A DNA stretch of 64,000 bases from Candidatus Thorarchaeota archaeon. GTDB lineage: Archaea > Asgardarchaeota > Thorarchaeia > Thorarchaeales > Thorarchaeaceae. The stretch's first letter is position 1; every line of letters starts with the position of its first letter. The notes beneath the pieces are model-generated. The model had not been told where the DNA came from and ran no database searches. It saw only the letters and a list, made by a program, of their open reading frames with translations. Position numbers and translations under genes: made by a program. Positions 3,720 to 45,631 of the stretch are shown piece by piece. The DNA lies in NCBI GenBank assembly GCA_003345545.1, contig PRDH01000026.1, positions 64,001-128,000 on the forward strand, in the 5' to 3' direction.

Positions 3720-4044
3720 GAACTCTGCCGGTGATTTAAACTAACTGATACTAGAAAAAAAAAGTCGTGATTGCAGCGACTGATTCCTTGAGGCCATTTG
3801 TTCGTAAACCTAACAATGCTGATTGCCATGTTGTCCAAGAAGAAGAACCACCCGCGATCTAAGGATGCGCCCTTGGGATGGATTCACAGAAATCCTGAAT
3901 TCATGAGCACTACTCCTCATTGCGATTTTTCGAACGGTTGTGAATTATATGGAATCACCATCTATTCATATACTAGTAATGACAAGATTGGCAAGTCAGA
4001 CGTACTGTCGTGAACATAGCTATGGCCATTGAGGAGATTAGCCA

Positions 4045-7000
4045 ATGAGAACTAAGAGAACTGTGGGACTAATTCTAGTAATTCTTCCTCTGATTCTGGG
4101 TATTATGATCTTGCCTCCTGGTTGGGCAATCGACTCAAAGCGTGGGTTAGATAGCGAGACTGTCGTCTTAGACAATGGCCAAAAGATTGTGGTAGCGCCC
4201 GATGAGGTGCTCATGAAGTACATCATCTCGGATTTGCCGACCTCAATGGCTGGAACAGGTGACCCATTGATTGCTTCAGAGTATGGAACGAGAATCGACT
4301 CGTTCATAGAACAGCGCATGGTCTATTATCCATCAGGAAGTATCACGACTGCTAACCTCTCGGTGCCCCTAGGCGAGCAGTGGGAAGGATATGGTGTCTA
4401 TGGAGACATCAGTAGTATAACAGAAAACCGTAGTTGGCTGGTCAATCAGGGCTTCAGCACAGATGCAACTTGGTCCTTCGAAACTCGATACGAGGAAGGG
4501 GATTTCAGTGGCAATAACAGAATGCATTACTTCACTCAAACAGGCACTAACGTAGGCACGTGGGGAACCAGAGGTACGGGAACGAGCCAATTCATTGATC
4601 CTTGGGGCGTCGCAATTGACTCCTCTGGCAACATCTACGTAGCTGATGCCTTCAACAACCGCATACAAGTCTTTACGAACACTGGCAGTTTCATTAGACA
4701 GTGGGGAAGCTATGGCATTGGAAATGGGCAATTCGACCGCCCCACAGGAGTTGCTGTCAACACCACAGGCTATGTATATGTTGTTGACCAAGGCAATGAT
4801 AGGGTGCAGGTGTTCAGTTCTACAGGTGTCTATCAGCGGCAATTCGGTACCTCGGGGATTGACAACGGTGAGTTCAGAAGTCCAACTGGTATAGCAATAC
4901 GCAACTCACTCGGATATGTATATGTGACAGACACAGGCAATGACCGTGTGCAGTACTTCAATTGGAATGGTGTACGACAAGGTGGTTGGGGCTCCACAGG
5001 GACAGGTAACAGCCAATTTCAGATGCCAACAGGAATCGCCGTCGACCAGGGCACTGGGCAGGTAGCTATCGCTGACAGTACCAACAATCGCGTTCAGAGG
5101 TTTACAGCTGCTGGAACATACTCTGGCCAGTTTGGCAGTCTTGGTGGCGGAAACACGAACTTTAGGACACCTATGGGAGTTGCCATCAACTCCACGACAG
5201 GTCGTATTTATGTGAATGACCTCGGCAATCACAGGATTTCTTACTTCTCCAACGCAGGTGCATATCAGGGACAATGGGGAACTGACGGAACAGGCACATC
5301 GAACCTACGCTTCAACTACGGTATCGCTGTAAGCCCGACGGGTAATGTGTACGTGAGTGAAGGCAGTGGTACTGAGAGGATGGATGCAAACTGGCTTTCA
5401 AACGGCCACGGAACGGGTAATCCATCTTCCATCTTTCAGATTGATGGCTACTGGCATGATGACCAGACTACGGATCTCTACGGATTCTGGTACAATCCTG
5501 GTGACAAAGCTTTTGCAAGACAGGACCTCGTAATCGAACGGGGCGAAGTGACGTGGGCTGGCATCTCCCTCGATTACTATGCAGACTGTCGCGGTTGGGG
5601 AACCTATATGACCGGGTTCTTTGAGCTCTTTGTATCGGTAGGCGATCCGGACCATGGTGGAAGCTACCTTTGGTCCAAGCAGTTTGACGATATTAATGAT
5701 GATAATATCTGGTACTCAACCGGACTTATCCCAATTGACTATTCTGACCTATCTCTGCCGAATGTAGAGATACTCGCAGGACTGAGAGTGACTGATAGCG
5801 AGTGGTATCGAGCAAGCGATATCCGACCTGAAGGCAGACTAGACAATATGGTCCTGTATATCAAAGCTAAGGCAACTCCTGATAACATTAATCTCCAGAT
5901 GAATGGAGTGGATGTCGATAATGTCTATAGTGGACCCACGCCAGTCTTTGGTCTCGGGACTGCTAGCTACGCGCCCTCGTTTCCATGGACATACGGCAAC
6001 GCCTATGCTAATTTCTCCTGGACCCCTGATGATAATCCCCCTGACCCGAATCTTGAGATATCCGTCTATATCGACGTTGATGTCAAGGTCTATGCACGTA
6101 GGTACAATGCAGTAACAGTCAATGACACTGAGCTTTTCAGCTATGGTGACAACTATGTCGTGCAGAACAGCACTACTGTCGAATGGACAACTAATCACTA
6201 CGTCGCGGTACCAGGAGGATACGAAGACGAGTTCTTCTACAATGTTTCCATACCACTGAATCGTGATATCACGTTCGTATCAGAACCCACGCAGCGATAT
6301 AGCAATCTTACGAATAGTTGGTATCTGGGCGACCCCGGTGATGGAGCTGTTAATATCTCAGTTTATGAGCTCGGACTCTCTGAACCTAACGGATTCTGGA
6401 TGATTCGCGGCGTTTCACCCAATATGGTGACGAATCTGCACGTGTGGGACAATGTGCTTGGTCAATGGGTTCAGACGAAGACCTTTAGGGCGGATGAGAA
6501 CACGAGATTCCGTGCTGTTCTGCCATCTGCGTACCAAGGTGACCTTGTCACTTTCACAATATATGACTCCCATGGAGAAGTCTGGGATACACTCACAGCT
6601 ACAGTGGACGTATCTGGCTACGCAATCAGCAATTATGTGAATCTTGATGCTGTCAGTGCACGAGTCGGTTCCTGGGAGGTACAAGCTTTTGTAGACGATC
6701 ATGATTCGGGCATCGAGGTGCACAATATTGGTTTCTTCCGTCGAGGTTTCTCTATTGACCATTCTACTCAATTATCAGTGAAGTACCCTGTCGAGGGCAG
6801 ACTGACCTGGGCTGTGAATGTGACCTATGGGGCTCTTGTCTTTCTCCAAATCCGTGTGAATGACAGCGATAATGGTGACCTGCTGGCCGCGGGCGTGATG
6901 TTATATTCTGGAGGATTTGGCAGTGGGACGGTCAGCGACCTTGGCACTGGTGAGTACAGTGTGACCCTGAATACCAACCTGCTGCCTTCAAATGGTGTCT

Positions 7001-10000
7001 ATGAAGTTGACCTAAGTTGGACCAAAGCCAACTACGATTCTCTCTTCGATACTTTTACAGTCTATGTCGTCTATGAAACAGAACTGCTATCTTCTGACGC
7101 ACCTGGTATAGATGTTGCAAGTGGAAACACTGCTGAGCTCCATGTCTACTTCCAGGACATGTTTACCAATCCAGTAGTTGGTGCTGCGGTTGTATGTAAT
7201 TGGACGCAAGGCTACACTGTGACACCAGATGGCTCCGGTAACTATCTATTGAGGCTGGATACGACAGGTGTGACTCTGAATCTTTATCGTGTTTCAATTA
7301 CCGCCTCAAAGAACTACTACCAATCTCGTTCCATCATTTTGAGTGTTGAAGTGCGCGAACTGCATACCTCTGCCATTCCATCAACAAGCTTCTTGTCGCT
7401 CCCTGTTGGCTATACAACCTCATTCACTATCACTTACAGAGATACTGATCTTCAGGTTCCAATTACTGGCGCGGCAAACACAATAAGCTGCAACTGGTCG
7501 GCTATTCATTCTGCTGGCGACCAGAACTACACTGTCACAGGAACTGCAACCCCGGGAGTCTATCAAGTATTGATCTACTCTATGGACGACGACGCACTAG
7601 ATTCCTATGATCTACTTTTCAGAGTTGAGCGATATGGTGCGCAGAATCACACATTCTTCGTGACAGTGGAACTGAGAACACATCTGACCTCGCTCTACCT
7701 TGACAACTCAGTCGAGCCCACACCCTACACTGGCAATATCACAGTCAATCTTGTCTATTACGATGTTGATGCGAACACGGGGATAGTCAATGGAACGACC
7801 TTGGGAGGCTATGTGGAGCTGATTATTACGAGCTCGACACTGCCCTATCCGACGTTCTGGATTGCCGGCATAAGTCCTGATGGACTCTATGCCATTCATA
7901 TTCCTGCAAATCAGTGGCCGGATGTTGGACAGATTACTCTTAGTTTCGAGGTCAACTGGATTGGTGTGAATCTCAAATACTCTAATTTGACCCTTTCAAC
8001 GAGTGCTCTGATAACAGCCGCTCCTACTGATCTCTTTATCGGAGAGAGCCCTGTCATAACGCCCTATGGAGAAGAAATCTCATTCAGCATCATCTATTTT
8101 GACATAGGGGCTGACACAGGAGTAGTCAATGCCACAGGACCGTACTCTGGAAATGTTCACCTGTTCATTGAAGTGCTGACCATTGGTGAAACACTCACAC
8201 AGTACGATATGACCATCCTTGAGATTGACTACACTGCGCGCCCCGGTGAGTATCGAATCACATTCGATTCATCGCTCTTGAGCGGGCTCGGGGCAGTCGA
8301 ACTCAAGATTTGGCTGAACTGGACGTATGCGGAGTTGCCATACTATCAGAATCAGGTCATTGTGGTCACAGTCTACTCTGCACACCGATTGACAACCGTT
8401 GACTGGACTCCACTTCCTCTCACACCGTACGATGAGCTTGTCAACCTCACCTTTACTTTCACAGACTCGCTCAGCGGGGCTCCCATCTCGAACAGTCCCC
8501 AACTTTCAATTGCTGTCCCTGCCTATCCGTCATTCAATATCTACTATCTCGGTGATATCACAGGCGTATTCATTGTTGAGATTGATACATCTCTGCTTAG
8601 CATTGGAAGTCAGACATTCTATCTCGATGTCATATGGACGGGAAGCCCCTACTACCAGAATAGGACAGGTGTCCAGATCTTCATATCAGTTAGAGAGAGA
8701 TACACGGACCTTACCCATGGGACCTACTCACCAATTCAGATAGGCAACACATTGCACCTCAACTTCACATATCGCGATCTCGATGACTATACATCGTTAG
8801 GAATGAATGGAGCTACACTTCTTCTTGATAGCTGGTTGGCCGGAAGCTACACAGTAGATGATCTTGGTAATGGAATGTACACACTGCACCTTGATACGAC
8901 TGCCTTCAGCACGATTGGAACAAAGATTGTGAACGTAACAATACTCTATGGAGGAAGTCGCAATTGTGCTGATGCCTATGACATATTCTATCTCACTCTT
9001 ACCATAAGGCGAACCCAGCTGACAAGCGACCTCCCTGATCTGGCGCCTTACCTAACCGAAGCTGTGATTGTCATCCATTACACGGATGATACAACAGATA
9101 CTGGTATCGTCGGGGCGACTGCGACAGCTGCTTGTGCTGCGGCAATTCAGACCCTGCAATTGAATGTCAACTACTGGGTTGACGACAACCTCGATGGAAG
9201 CTATAGTGTACGAATTCTTACCACTGCTCTAGGCAACTTCGGACCATATACAATCACCATCACAGTCACCTGGGACCTAGGCTGGCCATTCTATCAAGAG
9301 AGAGTCCGTGATGTGGACATTGAGGTTTCAAGGCGTCCCGCAACCGTCACAGTTTCCAAATCTCCTCTAAATACACCGTTTCTATCGAATGTGACATTCG
9401 AGATAGTTGTCACTGACCAACTTGATAGTACTGGAATCACTCTGAGCAAATCGAACCTGATTCTAACGCACGGAATAGGAGGCACCTTGATTAGTAATGA
9501 TCAGTATTCCATGGCTGGTTCAAATGGCATATACGTCATCTCCATCAATTCACTAGTTCTATCATCCGATCTCGAGGAAGACTATCCAATATTCATCTTA
9601 TTTGTCTGGGGTGACCTTACTCCGTACTATGCAAATGCATCATCCTCTACAGAAGTGTCCATTGTTGCACGATTCACTCAGGTCGCAGTGCTACAGACCC
9701 CGCCGGGCTATTACTACTTCAATGTCAGTGCTCTATTGCGTTTCAGCGACTACCTAACTGGTGCTCCAATTGCCGGCGCCACTGTCAGCGTGGCTTGCAC
9801 AAATACATCGAGTTTCGACTATTGGGTCGTCGACAATTCTGATGGTACCTACACAATACTAGTGGATTCGAACAGCCTAGCGGGTCTCGGCAGGTACTTC
9901 TTCCAAGCCAATTTCACATGGTCTGGCAGTCCGTTCTATCGCGACGTTATCGGCGTGAAATTCAGCATATCCGTAAATCCAGTATCTACAACCTTGAATT

Positions 10001-12744
10001 TTGTCCTACCTGAGGGAGTTACATACTATCTTGGCGATATGGTCTACGCCAACATTAGCTACACTGCTATTGCCTTTGGTACTGGAGTGGCCGGAGCTGC
10101 TATCACGACTGACTGGTTCACACGGTATGGGACCGGCAGTAGCATTGTGGAAATAGCACCTGGCATATACCAGATGTCAATCAATACATCTGGACTCAAT
10201 GCTCAGCTATATCGATTCATTGTAAATGCAAGCAAATACCTCCATTTGAGTCAGAGTATTGAGGCGGACATTCTTCTTGCAGCTGTGCCTGTCTTGTTGG
10301 AACTTGTCTTCACTCCTCAGAATCCCATGTGGGGTGATAGTGTGGCGTTCCAGGCAAATGTAACAGATGCAAGGACAGGTGCCCCGGTTGTCGGAGCATA
10401 TGTCAACCTGACCATTGGTCTGTTAGTATTTGATATGACGCCAGTTGCCGATGGTCTGTATAACTGCACAGTTCTCACTTCTTCATTGACCTCAGGTGAG
10501 TACACAATCGAGGTACAGTCGTCTCTACTTAACTACGAGACCGCGCAGCGAGATTTCCAGATCCGCATTGAAAAAATCGCCGCAAAGATTTTTGCGTCCA
10601 TCGATCCAATCTCTGCTGTTAATGGCCAGACGGTCATTGTCCATGTCGATTACCTCGAGTACGCAACCGGTCTTCCAATCTCCGTGGATGGAGTGGTTGA
10701 ATTCTCATGGATCGGTGGCAGCGGCTTCATTGGCTGGTCAGCTGGCGATGACAAATATGTTGGTTCCTTTATCGTGACTGGAGCTGCCGTTGGTAACCAC
10801 CATATTCTCATCCAGGCCTCCTCCCCTAACTACAAGAGCGTCAGTACTGTGGTAACAATTGAAATCACAGAGATAAACACGCAACTCGTCCCGATATCAA
10901 ACACAGTTATCTCCGGCAACTACAGAGATATTGTCAATATCACCGTGTATCTGAACAATACTGATCTCAATCTACCAGTTGATGGCGCTACTCTCAGTTT
11001 TGGAGTGGGCTCTATCGTTGGCAATCTCATAGAGTTGACAGCTCCAGGCTACTACAGTGCTTTAGTGGATACATCGTTCCTGAGTGTGCAAGAATGGACC
11101 GTGTCTATATCTAGTGTCAAACCTGGATTCACTCCATCTCAATTCGACTTCACGCTGACAGTTGAACAGATCGAGACTACGATTGTGATTCTCACTAGTG
11201 GTACAGTTTCAGGCTACTACGGTGAGATCGTGACATTCAACTTCTTGTTCAATGATACTCATGCTAACGAAGGAATATCCGGCGCAATCACGAACTACAC
11301 TTTAGAACAGACACATGGATCGCTTGTGGACAATGGAGATGGAACCTACAGTCTGACTCTGAACACTTCTATTGCATCCGCTGGAGCGATACCGCACGAC
11401 ATATCTTTGACTTTCAGGAAAGAGAACTACCGCTTCGCCTATGGACTCGCCAAGCTTCTCGTGATGCCCGTCCCCACACAAATCGAAGGTCCTCTTGAAG
11501 CTGAGTATCCAATATATGACAACTATTCAATGCTTTTCAGTTTCAGGGACACACTTAATGATGCTTGGGTCACTGATGCAGTTGCAACAGCAGTATGGGA
11601 ATTCGGCACTGCGACTCTGACGAATCTCGGAAATGGTTCGTACATGTTTGGTCCTCATGAAGCGAATCTGTCGACACCTCTTCAGTACAGAGAACTCTCC
11701 TACAGGATCAGGATATCACTCTCAAGAGCAAACTATACCAGGATGGAGATTGAGCATTATTTGACCATTCGTAGAATCCTGACAGAGACGGTCTCTGCTG
11801 CGCCAACCTCAGCTATCTATGTTGGAGATGTGTTCCTTGTCAATGTCACTTTTTGGGACGCCGACCATGGCATAATGATCACTGATGCTATCATCAATGT
11901 TATCACTAGCAGCCAGGTTGATAACGGACTCATCCATGAAATTAATTTGGACATCAACTGGGGTAATGGGACCTATACGATTGCTCTCCGTGCACCTAAC
12001 TTGGCGTTCTATAGCCTCCGCATTGATTTCAGTAAGGCGGACTATCAGACTTCGTCAGTGGAGCTCGATATCTACGCTAGGCTAAGTCCCGAACAGGAAG
12101 CACTTGCGAGGGGCTTCGAGTACTCAGCAATTGGAATACTTGCGCTCGCGGCTCTCGCAACCCTGTACATCAAGGTGCTGTCGGTTCCAAAGCTGCTTCG
12201 GACTCTTAGACGGATGGTGGCAGTTCTTGGTAGAGGCCGCATACCAAAACCCGCCAATGTTCCAGTACGACGTAACATGCTGCTGGCGATGATGAAAGAG
12301 GAGCTTGCAGGTGTGGCGGTCGTGAAGACCATTGAGGATATTTCAGTTTCGACAGTTGATGTAGCTGCTATGGATGTCGAGGCTCTGCTTGAGGACCTTG
12401 CAACAGTTGTTGGTCTGACAGCGAGCGATGTTGACACTCTTAGGAGAGATCTTGACCAGATGAGGCCGAGTGAACGTGCTGGCTTCATCAATGAAGTCTT
12501 GAAGCAAGAACGTGCTAGACGGGCAAAGGAGCTTGCCGAAACCGAGGGTGTCACACCCGAGAAACGCCCAAGCACCGAAGTTGAGGAGAAGCTCTCTGAT
12601 GAGGAGCTCAAACACCTCAAGGAGCGATTGATGAAGATGGGAATTGCGGAAACTGAAGCAGATCTTATGGTCGAACAGGCGCGTAATTTGTCTAGGGCCG
12701 AGATAGATGCACTACTTCGTGAAATAGGAGGCTCAGAAGAATGA
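4045..12744 (+). CDS. Giant single-pass surface protein A: signal peptide, NHL propeller, many Ig-like beta repeats, TM helix, ~190-aa cytoplasmic tail
   Basis: N-terminal hydrophobic signal; NHL repeats; recurring ~100-aa beta-rich units (Y.D...I.GA...GNG.Y.L.L.T); many N-x-S/T sequons; TM SAIGILALAALATLYI; charged helical tail. Confidence 0.9.
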   Translation: MRTKRTVGLILVILPLILGIMILPPGWAIDSKRGLDSETVVLDNGQKIVVAPDEVLMKYIISDLPTSMAGTGDPLIASEYGTRIDSFIEQRMVYYPSGSITTANLSVPLGEQWEGYGVYGDISSITENRSWLVNQGFSTDATWSFETRYEEGDFSGNNRMHYFTQTGTNVGTWGTRGTGTSQFIDPWGVAIDSSGNIYVADAFNNRIQVFTNTGSFIRQWGSYGIGNGQFDRPTGVAVNTTGYVYVVDQGNDRVQVFSSTGVYQRQFGTSGIDNGEFRSPTGIAIRNSLGYVYVTDTGNDRVQYFNWNGVRQGGWGSTGTGNSQFQMPTGIAVDQGTGQVAIADSTNNRVQRFTAAGTYSGQFGSLGGGNTNFRTPMGVAINSTTGRIYVNDLGNHRISYFSNAGAYQGQWGTDGTGTSNLRFNYGIAVSPTGNVYVSEGSGTERMDANWLSNGHGTGNPSSIFQIDGYWHDDQTTDLYGFWYNPGDKAFARQDLVIERGEVTWAGISLDYYADCRGWGTYMTGFFELFVSVGDPDHGGSYLWSKQFDDINDDNIWYSTGLIPIDYSDLSLPNVEILAGLRVTDSEWYRASDIRPEGRLDNMVLYIKAKATPDNINLQMNGVDVDNVYSGPTPVFGLGTASYAPSFPWTYGNAYANFSWTPDDNPPDPNLEISVYIDVDVKVYARRYNAVTVNDTELFSYGDNYVVQNSTTVEWTTNHYVAVPGGYEDEFFYNVSIPLNRDITFVSEPTQRYSNLTNSWYLGDPGDGAVNISVYELGLSEPNGFWMIRGVSPNMVTNLHVWDNVLGQWVQTKTFRADENTRFRAVLPSAYQGDLVTFTIYDSHGEVWDTLTATVDVSGYAISNYVNLDAVSARVGSWEVQAFVDDHDSGIEVHNIGFFRRGFSIDHSTQLSVKYPVEGRLTWAVNVTYGALVFLQIRVNDSDNGDLLAAGVMLYSGGFGSGTVSDLGTGEYSVTLNTNLLPSNGVYEVDLSWTKANYDSLFDTFTVYVVYETELLSSDAPGIDVASGNTAELHVYFQDMFTNPVVGAAVVCNWTQGYTVTPDGSGNYLLRLDTTGVTLNLYRVSITASKNYYQSRSIILSVEVRELHTSAIPSTSFLSLPVGYTTSFTITYRDTDLQVPITGAANTISCNWSAIHSAGDQNYTVTGTATPGVYQVLIYSMDDDALDSYDLLFRVERYGAQNHTFFVTVELRTHLTSLYLDNSVEPTPYTGNITVNLVYYDVDANTGIVNGTTLGGYVELIITSSTLPYPTFWIAGISPDGLYAIHIPANQWPDVGQITLSFEVNWIGVNLKYSNLTLSTSALITAAPTDLFIGESPVITPYGEEISFSIIYFDIGADTGVVNATGPYSGNVHLFIEVLTIGETLTQYDMTILEIDYTARPGEYRITFDSSLLSGLGAVELKIWLNWTYAELPYYQNQVIVVTVYSAHRLTTVDWTPLPLTPYDELVNLTFTFTDSLSGAPISNSPQLSIAVPAYPSFNIYYLGDITGVFIVEIDTSLLSIGSQTFYLDVIWTGSPYYQNRTGVQIFISVRERYTDLTHGTYSPIQIGNTLHLNFTYRDLDDYTSLGMNGATLLLDSWLAGSYTVDDLGNGMYTLHLDTTAFSTIGTKIVNVTILYGGSRNCADAYDIFYLTLTIRRTQLTSDLPDLAPYLTEAVIVIHYTDDTTDTGIVGATATAACAAAIQTLQLNVNYWVDDNLDGSYSVRILTTALGNFGPYTITITVTWDLGWPFYQERVRDVDIEVSRRPATVTVSKSPLNTPFLSNVTFEIVVTDQLDSTGITLSKSNLILTHGIGGTLISNDQYSMAGSNGIYVISINSLVLSSDLEEDYPIFILFVWGDLTPYYANASSSTEVSIVARFTQVAVLQTPPGYYYFNVSALLRFSDYLTGAPIAGATVSVACTNTSSFDYWVVDNSDGTYTILVDSNSLAGLGRYFFQANFTWSGSPFYRDVIGVKFSISVNPVSTTLNFVLPEGVTYYLGDMVYANISYTAIAFGTGVAGAAITTDWFTRYGTGSSIVEIAPGIYQMSINTSGLNAQLYRFIVNASKYLHLSQSIEADILLAAVPVLLELVFTPQNPMWGDSVAFQANVTDARTGAPVVGAYVNLTIGLLVFDMTPVADGLYNCTVLTSSLTSGEYTIEVQSSLLNYETAQRDFQIRIEKIAAKIFASIDPISAVNGQTVIVHVDYLEYATGLPISVDGVVEFSWIGGSGFIGWSAGDDKYVGSFIVTGAAVGNHHILIQASSPNYKSVSTVVTIEITEINTQLVPISNTVISGNYRDIVNITVYLNNTDLNLPVDGATLSFGVGSIVGNLIELTAPGYYSALVDTSFLSVQEWTVSISSVKPGFTPSQFDFTLTVEQIETTIVILTSGTVSGYYGEIVTFNFLFNDTHANEGISGAITNYTLEQTHGSLVDNGDGTYSLTLNTSIASAGAIPHDISLTFRKENYRFAYGLAKLLVMPVPTQIEGPLEAEYPIYDNYSMLFSFRDTLNDAWVTDAVATAVWEFGTATLTNLGNGSYMFGPHEANLSTPLQYRELSYRIRISLSRANYTRMEIEHYLTIRRILTETVSAAPTSAIYVGDVFLVNVTFWDADHGIMITDAIINVITSSQVDNGLIHEINLDINWGNGTYTIALRAPNLAFYSLRIDFSKADYQTSSVELDIYARLSPEQEALARGFEYSAIGILALAALATLYIKVLSVPKLLRTLRRMVAVLGRGRIPKPANVPVRRNMLLAMMKEELAGVAVVKTIEDISVSTVDVAAMDVEALLEDLATVVGLTASDVDTLRRDLDQMRPSERAGFINEVLKQERARRAKELAETEGVTPEKRPSTEVEEKLSDEELKHLKERLMKMGIAETEADLMVEQARNLSRAEIDALLREIGGSEE
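4522..5370 (+). repeat. NHL repeat array (about 6 blades) within giant protein A
   Basis: Tandem ~47-aa units: QFIDPWGVAID, QFDRPTGVAVN, EFRSPTGIAIR, QFQMPTGIAVD, NFRTPMGVAIN, NLRFNYGIAVS. Confidence 0.9.
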
Positions 12745-15700
12745 AGAACACCAGGCGATTGGTTCCAATTATCCTCCTCGTAGCACTGATGATAGCGCCT
12801 CTCTTCCTTACTCCGCAGGCATCAATTGCTGTAGCTACTCCCAACCTTGATGCAGACACATCTAGCGATGTTCGTATAGTCGATATTGGGAATGGTGAAT
12901 TCATTGAGTTGGCACCCGATGAGGAGCTGCATAGGTTCGTTCTCTCAGACCAAGGCTGGACTGAATGGACCGGCTTCAGCGACCCTCTCAACGGCTCCGA
13001 ATTCGGAAATAGCACCAACATCTTCCTTGACAGACAAATGACGTATATTCCAGGTTCTGGCACAAGTTCTGTTCAAACCGGTATTTCCATGGGCGTTGGC
13101 TGGGAATCATACGAAACCAGAGTCCAGATTACTAGCCTGACTGAGAATAGAACATGGATAACGAATCCAGGATTCCAGGATAGTGAGAGTGGCTGGACAG
13201 TATCAAACACAGACCTTGGTTCTTCCAGCACGACTACATCTTCATGGCTTAATGATGGGCATGGAGTGAATGATGATTGCATACAGGTTGATATAAACTC
13301 TGTAGGCTCCGTTCCACCCTACTACTACGATGATGGTGATATTTCTGCATATGAGCAAGCGACAACAGTGACTCGTGGCGCGGTCGTTTGGTCAGCCCTT
13401 CGTCTAGATTATTGGGCAGATACAGTGGATGATACTCATTACGGGATGACTGGCTCATTCCGACTTTTCACGAATGTTGAGGGCACTGACATCTGGAGAA
13501 GAGTATTCACTGATATCGGAGCTGAAGAAACATGGTACAACACAGGTCTTGTTACTGTCATCCCCTCGATATTCGGGCTACCAGGCGATGCAACGGTAAC
13601 CACGCGAATCGGTCTGGAATCACTTGTTGCTGTGGGTTATGACCCGAATATTCATCCTCGGGCAAGGTTTGATAACGTCGAGCTCTTTCTCAAGACTCTG
13701 GTCAATCCAAGTGAGATTACCCTTCGAATGAATGGCCTGACAGTGAGCGATGGCGCATCACGAGGGATCTGCGCGATAACGCAAATTCCGGCTACTCCAT
13801 GGACAACATCGCCCGTGCTGCTCACATTCTCATGGACTCCGATTCCTTCACCACCAAATCCAAACAAAGTAGTCAGAATTGACTTCAACGTGAACGTGAA
13901 TATGTTCGCGCGACGCTATGATGTTTCCAGTCTTTATGAGATCGGTCCCACCTCATATGGTGAGAGATTCATCGTAAGAAATGGAACGAACGCCGAGTTC
14001 ACTTCTTATTTCAGAGCCGATATACCCACGGGGTATGCAAATCGCTATTTCTTCAACGAAACAATACCAATGGAACGTGATATCTATTCTGTTGCGCAAC
14101 CACTTGCTCCAGCAACAAATCTCACGAGCGGATGGACTGGAGGGAATCCAGGAGATGGTTTCTTCAACGTATCAACCTATGATATCACCAATGAGCCTGG
14201 AAGATTCGGTTACTGGAGAATCCTAAGCAGTTCTCCCAACATGATTTCTGACCTGGAATTATGGAATCCCGACATAAGTGGTTGGGCGCGGACGGTCGAC
14301 CTGAGAGCAGGAGATACGACGAGAGTACGCGCGGATGTCGGAGCTGAGTTCGCTGGATCGACTGTCACAATCACAATATACAAACCAGACGATTCTGTGT
14401 GGTTAACCTTGAGCCCGATAGTTGATGGAGCAGGTTATGCTACATCTACGACGTTCGCCCTCGATGGCTCTTCTGCTCCTGCTGGCAGCTGGATGGTTCA
14501 GGCGACTACAAACAACGTAGGAGCTGATGGCGAGTGGACTTCAGTCGGTCTATTCAAGAGACCTTTCACAATCACACATGCCTCTGATATCACCCTGACA
14601 TACCCAGCGGATGCTGTGGGAACGATGTTGACCAATGTGACTTTTGGAGATCTCTTGCTGATCATCCTGGAAGTCGAGGACACCGACAGCTATTCACCCA
14701 CAGTCCTTGTTCCAGGAGGCACGCTGACTCTTGACTGGGTCTTGGGTAGTGATACGTTCGATGACAATAGAAATGGTCAATACACCAAAGTCATCGATAC
14801 AGCACTTCTTCCTGGCAGTGGCAATTATGTGATGGGTCTGGACTGGACTCACCCCAACTTCGATGCTTCCAATACTGCGCTTACGATAAATGTGAACTAC
14901 GCTGCCACATTGACCTCTCCAGATTATCCAGGTATCTCTGGTCCTGTTGGTGATGACCAGTCATTCATAGCAATATTCGCGAATGTGAATGGAACCGGAA
15001 TCACAGAGGGAGAGCTATGGTGTGATTGGTCCAATCCTTACACAGTAGTCCCACTGGGAACTGGCCAGTTCGAATTTCAGCTGGACATGGAAGATATCCC
15101 CATTGGTGAATATCCGATTCATGTCTACGCAACGGGCCCCTTCATTGAGCCGCAAACAATGCTGATGTACGTGGGAGCAAGAGAGATCTATAGTTCTATC
15201 ACGTACACCTCTAGCCAGCTGTCGATACCGCTTGGTGAAGCATCTTCATTCCTTCTAACATGGACCGATACTGACCATGGAACACTGATCGCAGGTTCCG
15301 CCTCATCTATAACCTGCAACTGGACATCGTTCCATACATCAGGCGATACGAACTACACGGTCGTCGAGGTTTCGCCAGGAAAGTACAACATAAGTATCTT
15401 CACAAAATCCAGTGATCCTCTGACAGGATCGGATTTCTTTGACGTACGTTTCAATGTAATGAAGGATGACTATCAGAATCACACCTTTGATATCGCTGTT
15501 GAGATTCGGAAGAGGAACACTCTCTTTGTCTTGGATGCACCGATTGTACAGACTCCCTATGGAAGTCCAATAACTGTTCTTGTCTTCTACCAAGATACAG
15601 ACCTTCGAGTTGGCATTGGAAACGTCACAGGAGAAGTGAGACTAACCATCACTTCATCAGAATTGGGAGGCATAGTATATACAACTGCAGCATCCTCTCT

Positions 15701-18700
15701 GGGTCTTGGACATTACAACATCACCATCCCGAGCGACCAGTGGGGGAGCATTGGGTGGAAAGACCTGCACCTTCTTATTGAGTGGAGCGGAGTTGTTGAC
15801 AAGTTCTATAGTCAAACGATAGACACCAGCGCAAGAATAACTGGTACTGATACTGATTTGTATCTTGAACTCGCACCGACTGCTACCTACTACTTGAACA
15901 CCTTCAACTTCACGGTGATTTATTGGGACACCGTAGGCCTGCTGAGGATTAGCAATAGCACGAACAACGTGTTTCTACACATCATGGCACTTGGTGCGGG
16001 CAATTCAGTGACTCAGAGCGATTTCACAGTGACTGAATCTGCATCGGTCCCTGGTACGTACATTTTCGTTCTTGGCAGTTCGCTATTCTCGAGTACAGAT
16101 ACATTTCGATTTGAGTTGTCCTTCATGTGGAAGAAAGGACAGAGTCCTCTCTATGAGAATGGAACTATGGTCGTTTCGCTCATTCTGTTGGATAGGCCTA
16201 CATATGTTGACTATACACCTGTCGCTTCGACTCCCTATGGCGAACAAGCTGAATTTCTCTTCAGCTTTGTTGATACTCTGACTTCAGTGAAGATCGCAAA
16301 TTCATCTCAATTGTACATAGACTTGAATGATTTAGGTGTAATATTCACTTACTCGTATAATCCAGTTACTAAGGAGTTCACATTGTACATAGATACTGCA
16401 TCGATTGGCAGCATAGGACCTCATGATCTTCACCTGAATGTGACTTGGATTGGAGCACCATTCTATGCTTCTATTCAAAGCAAGATATTCTCTGTCAGCG
16501 TGATCACAAGAGCGACGCAGCTCTCTCACCTATCCTTTAGCCCTGGGCAGTGGGGCAACAACATCACAATTGTCTTCATCTATACAGACATAGTAGCAGG
16601 CTCTACTACTGGCATGACTGGTACATTGACACTGAATATCGCAGCGGACAAGTATAGTGTGGTTTACAGTCCAGAGGGACGATTCATTGTTACCTTGAAC
16701 ACGACGGCCTTTCTTGGAGATGGAGAGTATTCTGTAACGGCAGTTGTTGTCCATACGTTTGCGTATTATGCTAACGCAACCGAGATATTCGATATTTCGG
16801 TACTCAAACGGTCTACGCAACTTGGCTATGACAGCCCGGATCCTGCACCGTATGCATCGAATGCTACACTTTATGTAACCTATGTCGATGACAGTACGGG
16901 AAGAGGTATTCCAGGAGCTAGCATTGCTATCTCCGGAAACAGTACCTATGCACTCGTCCTGAATTCCAATTATTGGTTCACGTACATAGGAAATGGTCGC
17001 TATCTCATCGAAGTCGATACGGCCGCTCTTGGCGCGCCAGGCTATTACCTCCTCACTGTTTCAGTCACATTTACAGGAGAACCGTTCTATCTTCCTGGCT
17101 CGAGAGATGTATTGACAAGGGTCACTTTGAGAACAACTCAGATTCTGATAACCCAGACTCCCGGAAGCGTTTCCTTCCTTGAAAATGTGGTCTTCAGATT
17201 CAAGTTCACTGATTACTTGCTGGGCACCAAGATTGCGATTACTAAGAGCCACATCACTCTCACACACGGCGAATACCCCTACACAGAGATTGCATCCGGA
17301 AGTTACTTCCTCTATGAGTATGCAACGTACTACGAGATAGTATTCAACTCAACCATTGTCAGTCCCGACACTCTCGTCACTGGACACCCTATTCAAATGA
17401 CAATCGATCTGGGTTCTGGCGTCCCCTATTATGCGCCTAGAAGTACTTCAACAACTGTATCGACAGTTGAGCGACCAACGCAGATTCTGTTTCCACTTGT
17501 GGAAGACACTCCCTACTTTGATAATATCACCATAGAGCTCAGTTACGTCGATTACTTGACAGGAGCCGGCATTGACGGCGCGAACCTGCTGATAGCAAGT
17601 GGTAACTGGTCGTCGCCTCAATACACGTTGTTCCGCGAGGGCGATGGCACCTACAGAATCCTCATCAATAGTAGCGTATTTGGAAACACTGGAACTGTCT
17701 TCTTTGACATCACTCTCAGCAAGTCAGGTGCACCGTTCTACTCAACCAGGGCTACCCTCGGTGTTCCAGCAACCATTAGGGAGGTACAGACCTCTCTCGT
17801 CGCGGACGCTCCTCCTGCTGGTTCCACAGCTGTGGGAGCACCTATCGAGGTCCTGCTTACGCTAGTTGATTTTGACCATGACTTGCCCCTATCAAATGCA
17901 GTCATCACCAGTGACTGGACGGCACTCTTTGGCAGGAGCTATACAGTGGTAGAACTGGGGAATGGTGCCTACACAATCACCCTCACCACAACTGGACTGC
18001 TTGCACAGAGGTATGACTTTCACGTCTATGGTGACAAACCGTTCTATCAGACTGCAGTGGCAGGAGTATTTGTTCAACCCGGTGCAGCCACAGTCGAGAT
18101 ATTCTTGGAGAGGAGCACCTACTACGCAGATTGGGGCGAACTAGTCAATATCACATTTCAAGTTCGGGAACCCTATTACAGCACGCCTGTCACTGGCATG
18201 ACTGCATCTCTTCTTTGGCAAGGCATGCTCTATGGCTTCAGCGAGGTCGGCAATGGCTATTACACGCTGTTGCTTGATTCGTCAGATACTAACTTTGGCG
18301 TCTATGCTCCGCAGATATCTGTCACGAAGCAGTACTATCAACCAAGGCAGACAACATTCAATCTCATAGTGTCAAAAGCTACAGGACAGATCATTCCTGA
18401 CTTTTCGAGTTATCAGGTTGTGATTGACACTTCAATAGACATCCAGCTGTTTCTGAATGACACTGTTTCTGGAATGCCTGTGACCACGGCGACAGTGACA
18501 ATGGAGTTCAATAGTACAGTCTATCTGCTCACTCATCTCGGTGCAGGTGTCTATTCTGGTGACTTGCTTGTATCCGGTTTTGCGATTGGGCAATATCCAC
18601 TCACAATCAGAGCTATCTCTCTCAATCATATGTTCCTGGAAACCATCGTTGGCATCAACGTTGTCCCAATTTACACCGAAGTGAAGTTGGTGAGTGGCGC

Positions 18701-20498
18701 TACGGTTTTGACAGTCTATTTCGGTGACACGTTGAACATACTTGCGATCTATAACGACACGTACTATAATGCGCTAGTGAGTGGGGCTAGTGTGATCTAT
18801 ACCCTTGGAAGCCTCACCGGCACATTGACCGAGGAAACAAATCACACCTATAGTGCTGTGATTGACGTGAGCTCCCTGCCATCCCAATCAATCTACCTGC
18901 GGTTGACTGCTACGAAGTTCGGCTACTCGACCACAACGAAATCGATCATCGTGACAATCCTTCCGATTCCAACTTCTGCGACTGTTGATGAAGCCAGCAC
19001 GTTGGAGAGCGGATATTTCGGCGCTCCGCTCAGCTTCAAGTTCTATTACGATGACCTTCAGCACTATGTAGGCATCGGAGGAGCTAATGTGATTGCCAGC
19101 TGGGAAGGAGGTACACCAACTGTAACTGACTATTCTAACGGGACATACAGAGTTGACTTGGTCATCACTGTGACAATTCCAGGTATCTATGATTTAGTTG
19201 TAAGGTTCGACCTTCAGAACTACACAACAAGAACAGCGATAGCTAGGATTGAGGTCTATGCCACTCCCGCCGCAATCTACGGTCCAACCACCTACTCATC
19301 GCCGATCAATGATACCATCGTGATTCCTTATCATGTGAAGAATATGTTGGACAATAGCACCATATCGGATGTGATTGGATTCGCATCATCCTCTCAATTG
19401 GGTGAATACGAGCTTCTGTTACTGCCAAATGGCAACTATACCCTGAACCTCCCTGGCGACCTACAGTACGGAACTTACGGTTTTGATGTCTATTTCGCCA
19501 CAACGAAATACACTATGTCTCCCATTCATGTGGATGTTACGGTGCGGACGATCCTGACAGCAGCTCTGCATGGAAATCTGACTATTCGAACCCAGCCTGG
19601 AGTGTCTTTCTCCTTTACTGTGACATATATGGACTTGGACCATAATGTTCCGATCAGCGGAGGAAGTCTGTCCTTAGAACTAGACCCTCAAGCGATTACC
19701 TACTACAACCAATCTATGCTCGATGAAGATGGAACGTACACATTGTACTTCTTCGCGAAAGGCGGCGGAACCCACTCGATTGTCATCAATATTGTAAAGG
19801 AGGGTTATGTCGCTCAGCAAGTCAGACTGTCGATTCAGTCAGACATCTCTGCAGAGCAAGCCTTCCAGCAGTTGGTTACAACAGCCGTAGGATCCGGAGT
19901 TCTCATAGTAGCCCTGCTTCTAGTAGCCTATGTGAAAGTGTGGAGTATTCCAAAACAGATACGCATCATGAGCCGTATGATTCGAGCGCTGGCGAAAGGT
20001 CATGTGCCAAAGGCTGCTAAAGCCCCAACTAGACAAGACATAGCTATGACTATTGTCAATGAAGAGATAGCTTCAATGCACCTAGTGAAACCCAGAGAGG
20101 ACATAGCTCCGGAACCAATAGTAACAACGGTTCCAGAGGTTAATGAGCTATTAGAGGAACTCGCATCTATCACTGGACTGGGTGAGGCTGAGATTGATGC
20201 GTTCAAGGCTGACCTCTCTCGAATGAGGGCCAGCGAGAGACCCGGATTCCTCAAGGAAGTGATTGACCAGGAGAAGGCTCGTCGCGCTGACGTCTTGGCA
20301 AAGCCCGCGAAGGTGGTCGCCAAGAAAGAGCAAGTTCCTTTGCAGGACTTGCCTGGTGAGCTAGAGGACCTACGGAAGAAACTACTCAAGAAGGGCATGG
20401 CAAGTGATGAGATTGACATCATCCTAGAGGAGGCCAAGGGTCTCTCGAAGGCGGATCTTGAAGCACTGCTGGATAGCTTGGGTATTAGCTTGGACTAG
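12741..20498 (+). CDS. Giant single-pass surface protein B, paralog of A without the NHL propeller
   Basis: Colinear similarity to A (DPLNGSEFG/DPLIASEYG, TENRTW/TENRSW, SPNMISDL/SPNMVTNL); TM VGSGVLIVALLLVAYV; homologous tail; ATGA overlap with the stop of A. Confidence 0.9.
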   Translation: MKNTRRLVPIILLVALMIAPLFLTPQASIAVATPNLDADTSSDVRIVDIGNGEFIELAPDEELHRFVLSDQGWTEWTGFSDPLNGSEFGNSTNIFLDRQMTYIPGSGTSSVQTGISMGVGWESYETRVQITSLTENRTWITNPGFQDSESGWTVSNTDLGSSSTTTSSWLNDGHGVNDDCIQVDINSVGSVPPYYYDDGDISAYEQATTVTRGAVVWSALRLDYWADTVDDTHYGMTGSFRLFTNVEGTDIWRRVFTDIGAEETWYNTGLVTVIPSIFGLPGDATVTTRIGLESLVAVGYDPNIHPRARFDNVELFLKTLVNPSEITLRMNGLTVSDGASRGICAITQIPATPWTTSPVLLTFSWTPIPSPPNPNKVVRIDFNVNVNMFARRYDVSSLYEIGPTSYGERFIVRNGTNAEFTSYFRADIPTGYANRYFFNETIPMERDIYSVAQPLAPATNLTSGWTGGNPGDGFFNVSTYDITNEPGRFGYWRILSSSPNMISDLELWNPDISGWARTVDLRAGDTTRVRADVGAEFAGSTVTITIYKPDDSVWLTLSPIVDGAGYATSTTFALDGSSAPAGSWMVQATTNNVGADGEWTSVGLFKRPFTITHASDITLTYPADAVGTMLTNVTFGDLLLIILEVEDTDSYSPTVLVPGGTLTLDWVLGSDTFDDNRNGQYTKVIDTALLPGSGNYVMGLDWTHPNFDASNTALTINVNYAATLTSPDYPGISGPVGDDQSFIAIFANVNGTGITEGELWCDWSNPYTVVPLGTGQFEFQLDMEDIPIGEYPIHVYATGPFIEPQTMLMYVGAREIYSSITYTSSQLSIPLGEASSFLLTWTDTDHGTLIAGSASSITCNWTSFHTSGDTNYTVVEVSPGKYNISIFTKSSDPLTGSDFFDVRFNVMKDDYQNHTFDIAVEIRKRNTLFVLDAPIVQTPYGSPITVLVFYQDTDLRVGIGNVTGEVRLTITSSELGGIVYTTAASSLGLGHYNITIPSDQWGSIGWKDLHLLIEWSGVVDKFYSQTIDTSARITGTDTDLYLELAPTATYYLNTFNFTVIYWDTVGLLRISNSTNNVFLHIMALGAGNSVTQSDFTVTESASVPGTYIFVLGSSLFSSTDTFRFELSFMWKKGQSPLYENGTMVVSLILLDRPTYVDYTPVASTPYGEQAEFLFSFVDTLTSVKIANSSQLYIDLNDLGVIFTYSYNPVTKEFTLYIDTASIGSIGPHDLHLNVTWIGAPFYASIQSKIFSVSVITRATQLSHLSFSPGQWGNNITIVFIYTDIVAGSTTGMTGTLTLNIAADKYSVVYSPEGRFIVTLNTTAFLGDGEYSVTAVVVHTFAYYANATEIFDISVLKRSTQLGYDSPDPAPYASNATLYVTYVDDSTGRGIPGASIAISGNSTYALVLNSNYWFTYIGNGRYLIEVDTAALGAPGYYLLTVSVTFTGEPFYLPGSRDVLTRVTLRTTQILITQTPGSVSFLENVVFRFKFTDYLLGTKIAITKSHITLTHGEYPYTEIASGSYFLYEYATYYEIVFNSTIVSPDTLVTGHPIQMTIDLGSGVPYYAPRSTSTTVSTVERPTQILFPLVEDTPYFDNITIELSYVDYLTGAGIDGANLLIASGNWSSPQYTLFREGDGTYRILINSSVFGNTGTVFFDITLSKSGAPFYSTRATLGVPATIREVQTSLVADAPPAGSTAVGAPIEVLLTLVDFDHDLPLSNAVITSDWTALFGRSYTVVELGNGAYTITLTTTGLLAQRYDFHVYGDKPFYQTAVAGVFVQPGAATVEIFLERSTYYADWGELVNITFQVREPYYSTPVTGMTASLLWQGMLYGFSEVGNGYYTLLLDSSDTNFGVYAPQISVTKQYYQPRQTTFNLIVSKATGQIIPDFSSYQVVIDTSIDIQLFLNDTVSGMPVTTATVTMEFNSTVYLLTHLGAGVYSGDLLVSGFAIGQYPLTIRAISLNHMFLETIVGINVVPIYTEVKLVSGATVLTVYFGDTLNILAIYNDTYYNALVSGASVIYTLGSLTGTLTEETNHTYSAVIDVSSLPSQSIYLRLTATKFGYSTTTKSIIVTILPIPTSATVDEASTLESGYFGAPLSFKFYYDDLQHYVGIGGANVIASWEGGTPTVTDYSNGTYRVDLVITVTIPGIYDLVVRFDLQNYTTRTAIARIEVYATPAAIYGPTTYSSPINDTIVIPYHVKNMLDNSTISDVIGFASSSQLGEYELLLLPNGNYTLNLPGDLQYGTYGFDVYFATTKYTMSPIHVDVTVRTILTAALHGNLTIRTQPGVSFSFTVTYMDLDHNVPISGGSLSLELDPQAITYYNQSMLDEDGTYTLYFFAKGGGTHSIVINIVKEGYVAQQVRLSIQSDISAEQAFQQLVTTAVGSGVLIVALLLVAYVKVWSIPKQIRIMSRMIRALAKGHVPKAAKAPTRQDIAMTIVNEEIASMHLVKPREDIAPEPIVTTVPEVNELLEELASITGLGEAEIDAFKADLSRMRASERPGFLKEVIDQEKARRADVLAKPAKVVAKKEQVPLQDLPGELEDLRKKLLKKGMASDEIDIILEEAKGLSKADLEALLDSLGISLD

Positions 20499-21738: not shown

Positions 21739-22764
21739 CTAATCATCAGAGTTTCTCTTCCTTGCTCTCTGTGTCACTATACCGAGTGCAACAAATCCCA
21801 CGATGACGCTGAACCATAGAGTGACCACTCTAATCAGGATAGTGGCCGCACTTGCATGCGATGTAGATACTCCAAGTAGCAAGGGAATCAGTAAGACAGA
21901 TGTGAGCTCATATGTTCCGACTCCGCCGGGCAAGAACGAGACTGCACCGATGACTGAAGCTGTCGAGTGAATGAATGTTGCAGTGAGCAATAGCAGCAGA
22001 GGACTCATTGGAATCGCTGGTGCGAGTACTGTTAGTAGTAGCCACAGTTCGATACACTCCATGAACCATCCAGGAATACTGATTGCTGTGCCGGCCAACA
22101 TGGGCCTAGGACTCAGTGTTTTGGTCATAGTGTCTTCGACAAGGTCAAGGCTGTCTTGAAATCTCTTCAAAGGGCCGACTGAAGTCAGTCGCTTCAAGAT
22201 TCTGCTGTAGAACACGCCGGTTCCGAGGACAATCGCGCCCCCAAGTACTGCTCCGCCTAGAACGAGCACTGTGAGCAATTGATTTCCTGTGTTGATGCCG
22301 ACCGAGAATCCAACTAGCACCAGAATCACCATTGCCAAGAGATCCGTGACCCGTTCTGATATCACTAGTGGAGCTGTCTTTGCCACAGGCGTACCATCGA
22401 TTGTCCTGATGAAATAGCCTTTGACAGCCTCTCCGATCTTTGCGGGGGTCGTCGTGAGGGTAAAGCCTGCGAGAAAGACACTGAAGCTGTCCGCATGGCT
22501 AAGGCGAATGTGTATCCGGTGGAGAAAATACTGCCATTTGAAATACCGAATGATATAGTTCAGAAAAGAAAGCGCCATCATTGCTGGCAGTACCCACATC
22601 CATGGGATCGAGCCCAGCGCCAATAGAACTTCGTTCGGGTCTCCATAGACTCCTACTAGTGCAAAAACAACCATACTGAAAATGATGAAGATGGCTATGT
22701 TTCGTGGACTGATGAAGGAACTTTCCCTGATTGTATTCTCAGATTCACCAAGCATCGTATGCAA
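21739..22764 (-). CDS. Lysylphosphatidylglycerol-synthase TM family (flippase/transferase-like) protein
   Basis: Polytopic; TPAKIGEAVK, ERVTDL, FLPGGVGTYE, IRVVTLW. Confidence 0.85.
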   Translation of the reverse strand: MHTMLGESENTIRESSFISPRNIAIFIIFSMVVFALVGVYGDPNEVLLALGSIPWMWVLPAMMALSFLNYIIRYFKWQYFLHRIHIRLSHADSFSVFLAGFTLTTTPAKIGEAVKGYFIRTIDGTPVAKTAPLVISERVTDLLAMVILVLVGFSVGINTGNQLLTVLVLGGAVLGGAIVLGTGVFYSRILKRLTSVGPLKRFQDSLDLVEDTMTKTLSPRPMLAGTAISIPGWFMECIELWLLLTVLAPAIPMSPLLLLLTATFIHSTASVIGAVSFLPGGVGTYELTSVLLIPLLLGVSTSHASAATILIRVVTLWFSVIVGFVALGIVTQRARKRNSDD

Positions 22765-23434
22765 TCCTCCGAATCCGTTGCCAGAGCATTGTTGGGACGT
22801 GTAAAAGGAAAAACGAGGGATAGCCAGTGATCTGCGTTCGACCTGCCTTCAATTCAGTATAGATATCGTCAGCAGTTTCAATATCCTGAAGCCAGGTTTT
22901 GGCATGCCCCATCTCAAGGATGGAATGTCCATCGCTGCCTGCTGTCATTGGTTTGTTCATACGTTTTGCAAGATTCTGAGCGCTTCTGTTGAAACTATTG
23001 ATGATACATCTTGAGTTGATACCTTCAACAAGGTCCACGTGCTTGGCTATCAAATGCTCAGGAAGTCCCCGTCTTACGGCAGCGTTTTTTCGTAGTATGT
23101 CGGTGGGGTGCGGAAGAATGACGAGGCCGTTCATGTCGTGAATGTCTTCTGAAATCTCAGCAAAAGTTCTATTTTCAATATGCCCTGAGATGAATAGACC
23201 GATCACTTCGCCAAAGTCTTTAGACTTGTATTCACATCCGGGAAGGATGAATCTTCCATCTCGGTGAATGACTCTCAGATTCGCAGCTCGAACGTGTTCG
23301 GTCGGTGCTACTCCTCTCAGACCTTTCTTCTTCATCGTTTTCAAGAGCGAGTGTGGAGTCTGAAGACCATCCTTTGAATGAAATGTGTGCATATGGAAAT
23401 CGAAAGCCGACAGCCGCTCGCTCATCTTTGACAC
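22745..23434 (-). CDS. PHP-domain phosphoesterase
   Basis: DFHMHT, PTEH, GCE, LPHP, EGINSR, AGSDGH. Confidence 0.88.
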   Translation of the reverse strand: MSKMSERLSAFDFHMHTFHSKDGLQTPHSLLKTMKKKGLRGVAPTEHVRAANLRVIHRDGRFILPGCEYKSKDFGEVIGLFISGHIENRTFAEISEDIHDMNGLVILPHPTDILRKNAAVRRGLPEHLIAKHVDLVEGINSRCIINSFNRSAQNLAKRMNKPMTAGSDGHSILEMGHAKTWLQDIETADDIYTELKAGRTQITGYPSFFLLHVPTMLWQRIRRIAYDAW

Positions 23435-24427: not shown

Positions 24428-24442
24428 TACCTAATCCTCCAA

Positions 24443-45552: not shown

Positions 45553-45631
45553 ATTCTCTTCTCCGTCAGTCAGAGTCTGATTTGCAGAACATTCGAACAA
45601 TTCATGTATTCAATGTTGCTGAAACAACACC

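Follow-up and report, generated by a model that had tools for sequence, protein, structure and literature searches.

Two very large genes, here called A and B, lie in tandem on the forward strand of a 64,000-nucleotide (nt) stretch of the genome of Candidatus Thorarchaeota archaeon (GenBank contig PRDH01000026.1, positions 64,001 to 128,000; hereafter the window). We read them as co-transcribed, translationally coupled paralogues that act as one two-component surface fibre of fixed length in Thorarchaeia, and we give this reading a probability of roughly 0.55. The window is part of contig C26 of our collection, and the genome is 2.69 Mb in size and 93% complete. Each gene has about 86 orthologue clusters at 90% identity (those of B being 2550-2600 amino acids (aa) long), so A and B are not chance open reading frames (ORFs). 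The named orthologues are almost all hypothetical proteins of 'Candidatus Thorarchaeota', which bears out an earlier interpretation of the bare DNA (hereafter the sequence-only reading) that had taken the host for a probable Asgard archaeon. All members of the family are currently annotated as hypothetical proteins, and no paper describing it was found in the literature searched; in a survey of huge proteins, Thorarchaeota are represented by just three of at least 5000 aa, which are not analysed there.

Architecture of the two chains

The sequence-only reading had described two overlapping ORFs of 2899 and 2585 aa joined by ATGA at 12741-12744, and both are present as described, on the + strand (Table 1). 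A fusion of the two products by read-through or frameshifting was considered and rejected: B starts with its own signal peptide and is therefore a separate secreted chain.

The colinear alignment of the two proteins from the N-terminal domain to the tail, also claimed earlier, was reproduced by BLASTP, in which A450-2895 and B169-2581 showed 32% identity over 2466 columns with 3% gaps, extending to the C-termini. The N-terminal ~120-150 residues of A and B are 32-34% identical by the same method, and the difference in length between the proteins is accounted for by an insert of ~300 aa in A (aa ~146-449) that appears as an alignment gap in B. The repeats of ~100 aa that had been noticed in both proteins resolve into a stalk of 17 immunoglobulin (Ig)-like modules in each, detected with a hidden Markov model (HMM) iterated from one module (85-aa core, ~105-aa period). 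Module i of A finds its best match in module i of B in 13 of the 17 cases, with a mean score of 102 on the diagonal versus 41 off it, and we therefore conclude that the whole stalk was duplicated once and that the modules have been individualised since. Known repeat families remained below their Pfam cut-offs in A and B, including the big/invasin-type repeats (Invasin_D3, 14.4 bits against a cut-off of 33), CarboxypepD_reg (25.5 bits against 32.3), Ca_tandemer (10 against 50) and MG2.

Both ectodomains are rich in N-x-S/T sequons, as the sequence-only reading had it, with 47 in A where 29 were expected (z 3.8) and 41 in B where 21 were expected (z 4.7). Only one sequon falls in the cytoplasmic tail of A and none in that of B, and this enrichment in the ectodomain together with near-absence from the tails fits an outside/inside topology. 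Beyond the signal peptide each protein has a single strongly hydrophobic helix, near the C-terminus, which agrees with the one transmembrane helix proposed for each; A has an extra borderline window at 2071. Small residues are conserved on one face of both transmembrane helices.

The insert in the head of A is a beta-propeller, matched by Pfam NHL (PF01436; E 5.7e-34, 114.9 bits against a cut-off of 20, in five stretches) and by DUF5128, a six-bladed propeller (E 4.5e-10). Orthologues of A come in two length forms, ~2550-2630 aa without NHL and ~2870-2915 aa with it. The longer form is carried by this genome, by its nearest relative and by several other genera, and the next relatives within the same genus have ~2570-2620 aa and no NHL. 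So patchy an insert implies repeated loss, or regain of a plug-in cassette by recombination.

For the remainder of the head the fold was modelled in B with AlphaFold2 (AF2; aa 30-640, with a predicted local distance difference test score (pLDDT) of 80-93 over model residues ~57-360) and transferred to A. Foldseek matched the B model to carbohydrate-binding modules (CBMs), namely CBM61 2xom (template-modelling score (TM-score) 0.56), CBM4-2 2y6k (0.52) and an alginate CBM 8zqf (0.54), all with probability 1.0 and target TM-scores of 0.52-0.56 at just 13-14% identity; Pfam gave no sequence-family match for a CBM in the B head. Multi-domain matches, at low TM-scores, were to Eph ectodomains, the MAM-Ig-FN part of PTPRK and the surface-layer (S-layer) protein of N. 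maritimus (Nitrosopumilus). The Foldseek search of predicted segments that had been proposed with the sequence-only reading thus returned a CBM-like jelly roll for the head of B and no solved fold for its tail.

Table 1. Coordinates in the window of genes A and B, of their start signals and of the domains of the two predicted chains.
Feature	Position	Strand	Remarks
GAGGAG, Shine-Dalgarno-like	4031..4036	+	8 nt 5' of gene A ATG; read from sequence
Gene A	4045..12744	+	2899 aa; predicted type-I membrane glycoprotein, upstream member
A signal peptide, aa 1-28	4045..4128	+	Basic N-terminus, then hydrophobic stretch; Kyte-Doolittle peak 2.68
A NHL beta-propeller, six-bladed, in head, aa ~146-449	4480..5391	+	Pfam; alignment gap versus B
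A head proper, aa 450-917	5392..6795	+	Jelly-roll CBM-like and beta-sandwich domains (fold from model of B head); homologous to B 169-617
A stalk, 17 Ig-like modules, aa 918-2658	6796..12018	+	Iterated HMM, i-E 1e-8 to 1e-24
A transmembrane helix, aa ~2692-2712	12118..12180	+	Hydrophobicity; conserved small residues (AALAAL)
A cytoplasmic tail, aa 2713-2899	12181..12741	+	187 aa
GGAGG	12727..12731	+	Inside gene A 3' end; 9 nt 5' of gene B ATG
ATGA stop/start overlap (A stop, B start)	12741..12744	+	Translational coupling signature
Gene B	12741..20498	+	2585 aa; predicted type-I membrane glycoprotein, downstream member
B signal peptide, aa 1-30	12741..12830	+	Gene B's own
B head, aa 31-617	12831..14591	+	CBM-like jelly roll, then beta-sandwich domains; AF2 model m0cd6904ced5b
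B stalk, 17 Ig-like modules, aa 618-2348	14592..19784	+	Iterated HMM; modules colinear with A
B transmembrane helix, aa ~2378-2401	19872..19943	+	Hydrophobicity
B cytoplasmic tail, aa 2402-2585	19944..20495	+	184 aa; all-helical, AF2 model m735d3bf3e851

The cytoplasmic tail

A well-conserved cytoplasmic tail of ~190 aa had been claimed for both proteins, and the tails, of 187 and 184 aa, indeed proved to be their most constrained segment. So long a tail is also, as had been stated, atypical for archaeal surface proteins anchored by a transmembrane helix: that of PySLP from Pyrobaculum arsenaticum, an S-layer protein of solved structure, is short and basic (bioRxiv 10.64898/2026.08.21.746120). 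The tails of A and B are 38% identical, against 32% for the whole proteins, and are net acidic, with 29 K+R each, 36 and 33 D+E, and E or D as the last residue. From the membrane inwards the order is the transmembrane helix, a basic amphipathic juxtamembrane helix that starts S-[VI]-P-K (S-V-P-K in A), a central three-helix unit, an acidic or proline-rich linker (acidic in A) and a C-terminal three-helix unit. The AF2 model of the B tail contains nine helices (mean pLDDT 79.6, predicted template-modelling score (pTM) 0.35).

Pairwise comparison among 9 A and 12 B orthologues gave a mean identity of 0.41-0.44 for the N-terminal 100 residues, which span the signal peptide and the beginning of the head, 0.5-0.6 for the rest of the head and the stalk, and 0.64-0.76 for the tail. 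Between this genome and its nearest relative (G000 versus G001) omega was 0.026 in the A tail and 0.044 in the B tail, compared with 0.07-0.09 in heads and stalks. By both measures the tails are more conserved than the ectodomains.

The tail matched no Pfam family or solved fold above noise. Against Pfam and NCBIfam it produced noise only (DNA_ligase_A_N, VipA, Pex14_N and MazE, with E of 0.02 or worse), and a comparison by features with the ESM Atlas gave no usable match. When the tail model was compared with the PDB, Foldseek found nothing at E ≤0.001 and a wide VIA-align search found generic three-helix bundles only (Z ≤7), within helical-bundle noise; a profile of the C-terminal tail module had a designed protein as its best match among PDB sequences (E 0.019). 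In a comparison of this module with small three-helix domains of the RecX, Pex14-N and UBA-like kind, RecX_HTH1 was matched by 12 of 26 module copies, the best at E 1e-3, below the cut-off. An assignment of the module as a SAP/HeH motif found no support, with one of the 26 copies matching YqbF_HeH (4e-4) and none matching SAP.

Searching 1.84 billion representatives with a profile of the tail retrieved 191 proteins. Where a match is full-length, its tail segment sits at the C-terminal end or close to it, and the proteins concerned are for the most part giants or fragments of giants. The exception is P0311 (245 aa), which has an N-terminal cis-prenyltransferase domain (UppS-like) and, behind it, the ~45-aa C-terminal tail module in two copies; this sole match with the tail module outside giant surface proteins could be a genuine fusion protein or else a chimera produced by gene calling. 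The UppS-like fusion aside, the tail is confined to the C-termini of a family of giant proteins centred on Thorarchaeia.

The conserved tails and their juxtamembrane helix, taken together with two single-pass subunits, a propeller on one head and a long stalk, recall the layout of integrins. Pursued to its end, this likeness would make A and B a receptor working outside-in and inside-out, in which a ligand of the head alters the association of transmembrane helices and tails and recruits cytoskeletal or trafficking proteins, and the small residues on one face of both transmembrane helices would suit such a device. We nevertheless hold it to be very unlikely, since no tail partner is known and only generic three-helix bundles resemble the tail folds (Z ≤7). 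Of the resemblance to eukaryotic heterodimeric adhesion receptors that the sequence-only reading had put forward, the layout stands, but the domains and motifs that define integrins (a vWA/beta-I domain, an FG-GAP propeller, an NPxY-type motif) are absent, and A and B are paralogues. That they form a true heterodimeric transmembrane receptor of some kind, whose tail couples contacts with syntrophic partners, particles or glycans to eukaryote-like cytoskeletal and membrane-remodelling machinery, also appears improbable to us.

Conservation of the pair in Thorarchaeia

Where contigs allow, at least 28 sampled genomes from many genera show the tails of A and B on one strand at a spacing of ~7.7 kb, so that the homologues occur as tandem A/B pairs and do not mostly stand singly. 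Ten adjacent NCBI locus-tag pairs likewise join A-type and B-type matches (e.g. JW779_11065/11070 and HXY34_03775/03770). All ten same-genus loci read have an overlap of precisely 4 nt between the A stop and the B start (ATGA, once GTGA), and in a genome from another family the genes do not overlap but lie 4 nt apart. A distant relative (locus L042, 55% tail identity) keeps the 4-nt overlap as well as the downstream synteny, which comprises genes for a tRNA synthetase, a PHP-LPG-synthase fusion, UbiA, DUF362, a metallophosphoesterase and a PIN protein. Its A orthologue (L042:1347-10004) is broken up into a row of four ORFs of 1407, 915, 283 and 297 aa, and the fourth overlaps the start of B by 4 nt; the split reflects either assembly frameshift errors or a decaying gene. 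Across a phylum sample of 200 further genomes, three families have the tail in 42 of 43, 1 of 1 and 19 of 19 of their genomes; in one more family it was weak, and in most other families sampled it was not found, e.g. 0 of 21.

In a tree built from the transmembrane helix and tail, clade follows gene position in five other genera: their upstream genes group with A and their downstream genes with B (Shimodaira-Hasegawa-like approximate likelihood ratio test (SH-aLRT) support 100 and 96, respectively). One genome (G153:C22:~1-30200, loci L043-L046) carries four genes of class I, as we term the A/B type, in the order A-B-A-B. Its two A copies are sisters in the tail tree, and so are its two B copies, which indicates that the pair was duplicated as a unit with its order kept. 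The genus also has two more classes of tandem pairs, II and III, whose members are larger paralogues: proteins of about 2,300-4,100 aa are paired with ones of about 3,170 aa, and proteins of about 3,400-6,200 aa with ones of about 4,000 aa. Each position forms its own clade. In the genome studied here a class-II paralogue of 4119 aa with the same tail (contig C19:75498-88128) ends 274 nt before the contig end. A downstream partner of ~3170 aa is expected there, and its signal peptide is encoded in the final 75 bases, so that a second pair was cut by the assembly. Much shorter relatives of 1424 and 1515 aa lie in tandem in another family of the phylum (G035:C24:89553-94876), with a diverged version of the tail and the tails 4.7 kb apart.

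Such persistence bears on whether A and B belong together at all. They might be independent, merely co-expressed paralogues with different ligands and no mutual binding, their overlap reflecting a compact operon. Overlaps of 4 nt are common in archaeal operons, the NHL insert is found in A only and is patchy among lineages, and many other giant single-pass proteins of this organism have unrelated tails and no obvious pairing. Residues conserved by type, A-specific or B-specific, in heads and tails also indicate sub-functionalisation. Independence nonetheless seems unlikely to us, because order and overlap are kept across genera, duplication has involved the A-B unit, and the same number of modules and their module-by-module match have been retained at just 32% identity. 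In addition, no genome of the genus and phylum samples had a complete A or B without its partner where the contig permitted the check.

The number of modules is itself conserved. Seventeen were scored in 127 of 170 class-I proteins (15-19 in the remainder) and also in both members of a pair from another family, and class-I lengths are constant within about 1-2%. The ectodomain, too, is under purifying selection, strong and even, without a trace of diversification. Selection of this kind, together with the fixed module number, points to a core structural part, unlike fast-evolving adhesins with variable repeats, and a core envelope fibre fits these data at least as well as a ligand-driven adhesion receptor does.

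The same features could be taken further, to an S-layer-like envelope in which A and B form a canopy on pillars, that is, a regular and mainly structural lattice tied to the interior by the tails. This would be a two-subunit counterpart of the 'colossal' Ig-rich, transmembrane-anchored S-layer proteins of Thermoproteota, and it overlaps with the reading that we favour. Besides the fixed length and module number and the even selection, it can draw on the near-universal presence in its taxonomic family (42 of 43), on the synteny with housekeeping genes kept in the distant relative, on the N. maritimus S-layer protein among the matches of the head model, and on PySLP, which combines 19 Ig-like domains with a signal peptide and a C-terminal transmembrane helix. 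Proteins of the PySLP type, however, are homo-hexamers with a short basic tail, whereas here there are two subunits and a tail of 184-187 aa, and Candidatus Lokiarchaeum ossiferum, although it comes from a different Asgard class, has no ordered S-layer (PMC9834061). We therefore regard a regular lattice, too, as rather unlikely.

A proposed two-component surface fibre and its known counterparts

If A and B do act as one two-component fibre, the ATGA overlap would lead to near-equal output of both chains from the same membrane-bound ribosomes, each chain being exported via its own signal peptide. Chains of equal length could then assemble side by side into a hetero-oligomeric fibre tens of nm long, with the heads at its tip binding glycans (probably) or other surface ligands. 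On the inner side, the basic juxtamembrane helix and the two helical tail modules might dock a cytoplasmic or membrane-peripheral partner, or cluster the fibres. These might stand as single adhesion spikes or be packed into a canopy-like envelope layer. The 1:1 A/B heterodimer of the sequence-only reading is a step that we infer, and within the two-component fibre we put physical heterodimerisation at roughly even odds. A complex prediction for the transmembrane helices and tails of A and B (alignments A3 and A4) returned no answer (score 0.00, without controls) and weighs neither way.

Several points speak against a joint fibre. Physical contact between A and B was shown by none of the methods used, and coupled tandem paralogues can share regulation without binding each other. 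The A and B tails of a genome from another family (G025) group together (support 81), so the A/B split may be younger than the pair, or gene conversion may have acted there. The upstream and downstream tails of class II are closer to each other than to A or B, which means that pairs arose more than once. Finally, with a pTM of only 0.35, the tail may consist of small helical units strung together flexibly, and not of one docking domain.

The surroundings of the pair give no functional hint, its neighbours being housekeeping genes (an ADP-forming acyl-CoA synthetase type, a class-I tRNA synthetase and a lipid-modification operon). A cluster of DUF362, UbiA prenyltransferase, PHP and LPG-synthase-transmembrane genes (21739-25522, - strand) keeps its place beside B in the distant relative. 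Elsewhere in the window are two leucine-rich-repeat proteins of 373 aa (Pfam LRR_4 and LRR_8) at 456-1577 (+) and 44479-45600 (-), and scans of the window for tRNAs and Rfam families found nothing. Many more giant single-pass proteins, of up to 6620 aa and with other cytoplasmic tails of 45-315 aa, are encoded on contigs C55, C32, C9, C58, C44 and others of this genome, and inner domains on surface proteins look like a recurring trait of this organism.

Cultured Asgard archaea are without a regular S-layer, and their complex surface proteins are thought to mediate cell-cell contacts relevant to eukaryogenesis (PMC9834061). The molecules behind these Asgard surface densities are mostly unnamed, and A and B provide a concrete, conserved candidate for Thorarchaeia: a two-gene fibre of fixed length, predicted to be glycosylated, whose most constrained part is intracellular. 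Should the tail have a cytoplasmic partner, it would offer a direct handle on the connection between surface and interior in Asgard archaea. Even a purely structural role would amount to a new organisation of the archaeal cell envelope, with a hetero-paired envelope protein bearing a cytoplasmic domain of 185 aa. Were A and B a heterodimeric receptor after all, they would be a prokaryotic equivalent of the adhesion receptors of eukaryotes, evolved independently in the lineage nearest to them.

Among known systems, the head-stalk-anchor design of A and B is shared with the bacterial Ig-repeat adhesins (invasin/intimin with their Big domains, and the SiiE and LapA types), which carry a distal binding head on a long Ig-like string. 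These giant adhesins are anchored in the outer membrane or cell wall or secreted by type I secretion systems, usually vary in repeat number and have no cytoplasmic domain; A and B, unlike them, are type-I transmembrane proteins with 17 fixed modules, an obligatory partner that is a paralogue, and a conserved tail. Integrins consist of non-paralogous alpha and beta chains with a seven-bladed FG-GAP propeller, a beta-I (vWA) domain with a metal-ion-dependent adhesion site (MIDAS) and tails of 20-70 aa with NPxY. Pfam searches of A and B turned up neither VWA nor integrin_beta with E limits of 0.1 (whole proteins) and 10 (heads), and the propeller of A is six-bladed, of the NHL type and not a seven-bladed FG-GAP one, and is absent from many A orthologues. 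What the two systems have in common is only the layout of two single-pass subunits with a propeller in one head, long legs and conserved inner ends, which we treat as analogy.

The Eph receptors and RPTP-kappa (PDB 2x11, 7s7k and 8a1f; Foldseek E 1e-6 to 3e-5) resemble A and B in having a jelly-roll head, beta-sandwich domains, a transmembrane helix and a cytoplasmic part. Unlike them, A and B have no kinase or phosphatase domain, and with overall TM-scores of 0.14-0.21 the likeness is one of domain order and common folds. SlaA and SlaB of the Sulfolobales are co-transcribed but mutually unrelated, and SlaB alone is anchored, without a cytoplasmic domain. As in SlaA/SlaB, there are two envelope proteins predicted to be co-transcribed in our case, but A and B are related to each other, both anchored and both tailed. 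Closer in phylogeny, Candidatus Lokiarchaeum ossiferum displays unordered, complex surface proteins in place of an ordered S-layer (PMC9834061), which makes fibres of the A/B type plausible parts of an Asgard envelope, though this organism belongs to another class.

The nearest archaeal analogue of A and B is PySLP, a 292-kDa protein whose ~2,700 aa comprise a signal peptide, some 19 Ig-like domains and one C-terminal transmembrane anchor (bioRxiv 10.64898/2026.08.21.746120). It is the product of a single gene and forms a homo-hexameric lattice on pillars that reach tens of nm from the membrane, with a short basic tail ending in Lys (bioRxiv 10.64898/2026.08.21.746120). A and B share with it the signal peptide, the tandem Ig-like domains and the one C-terminal transmembrane helix, and differ from it in being two coupled paralogues with a lectin-like head (with or without NHL) and an acidic helical tail of 184-187 aa; the likeness lies in architecture, and we claim no sequence kinship. 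The family is thus a variation on the giant, transmembrane-anchored Ig-repeat surface proteins of archaea.

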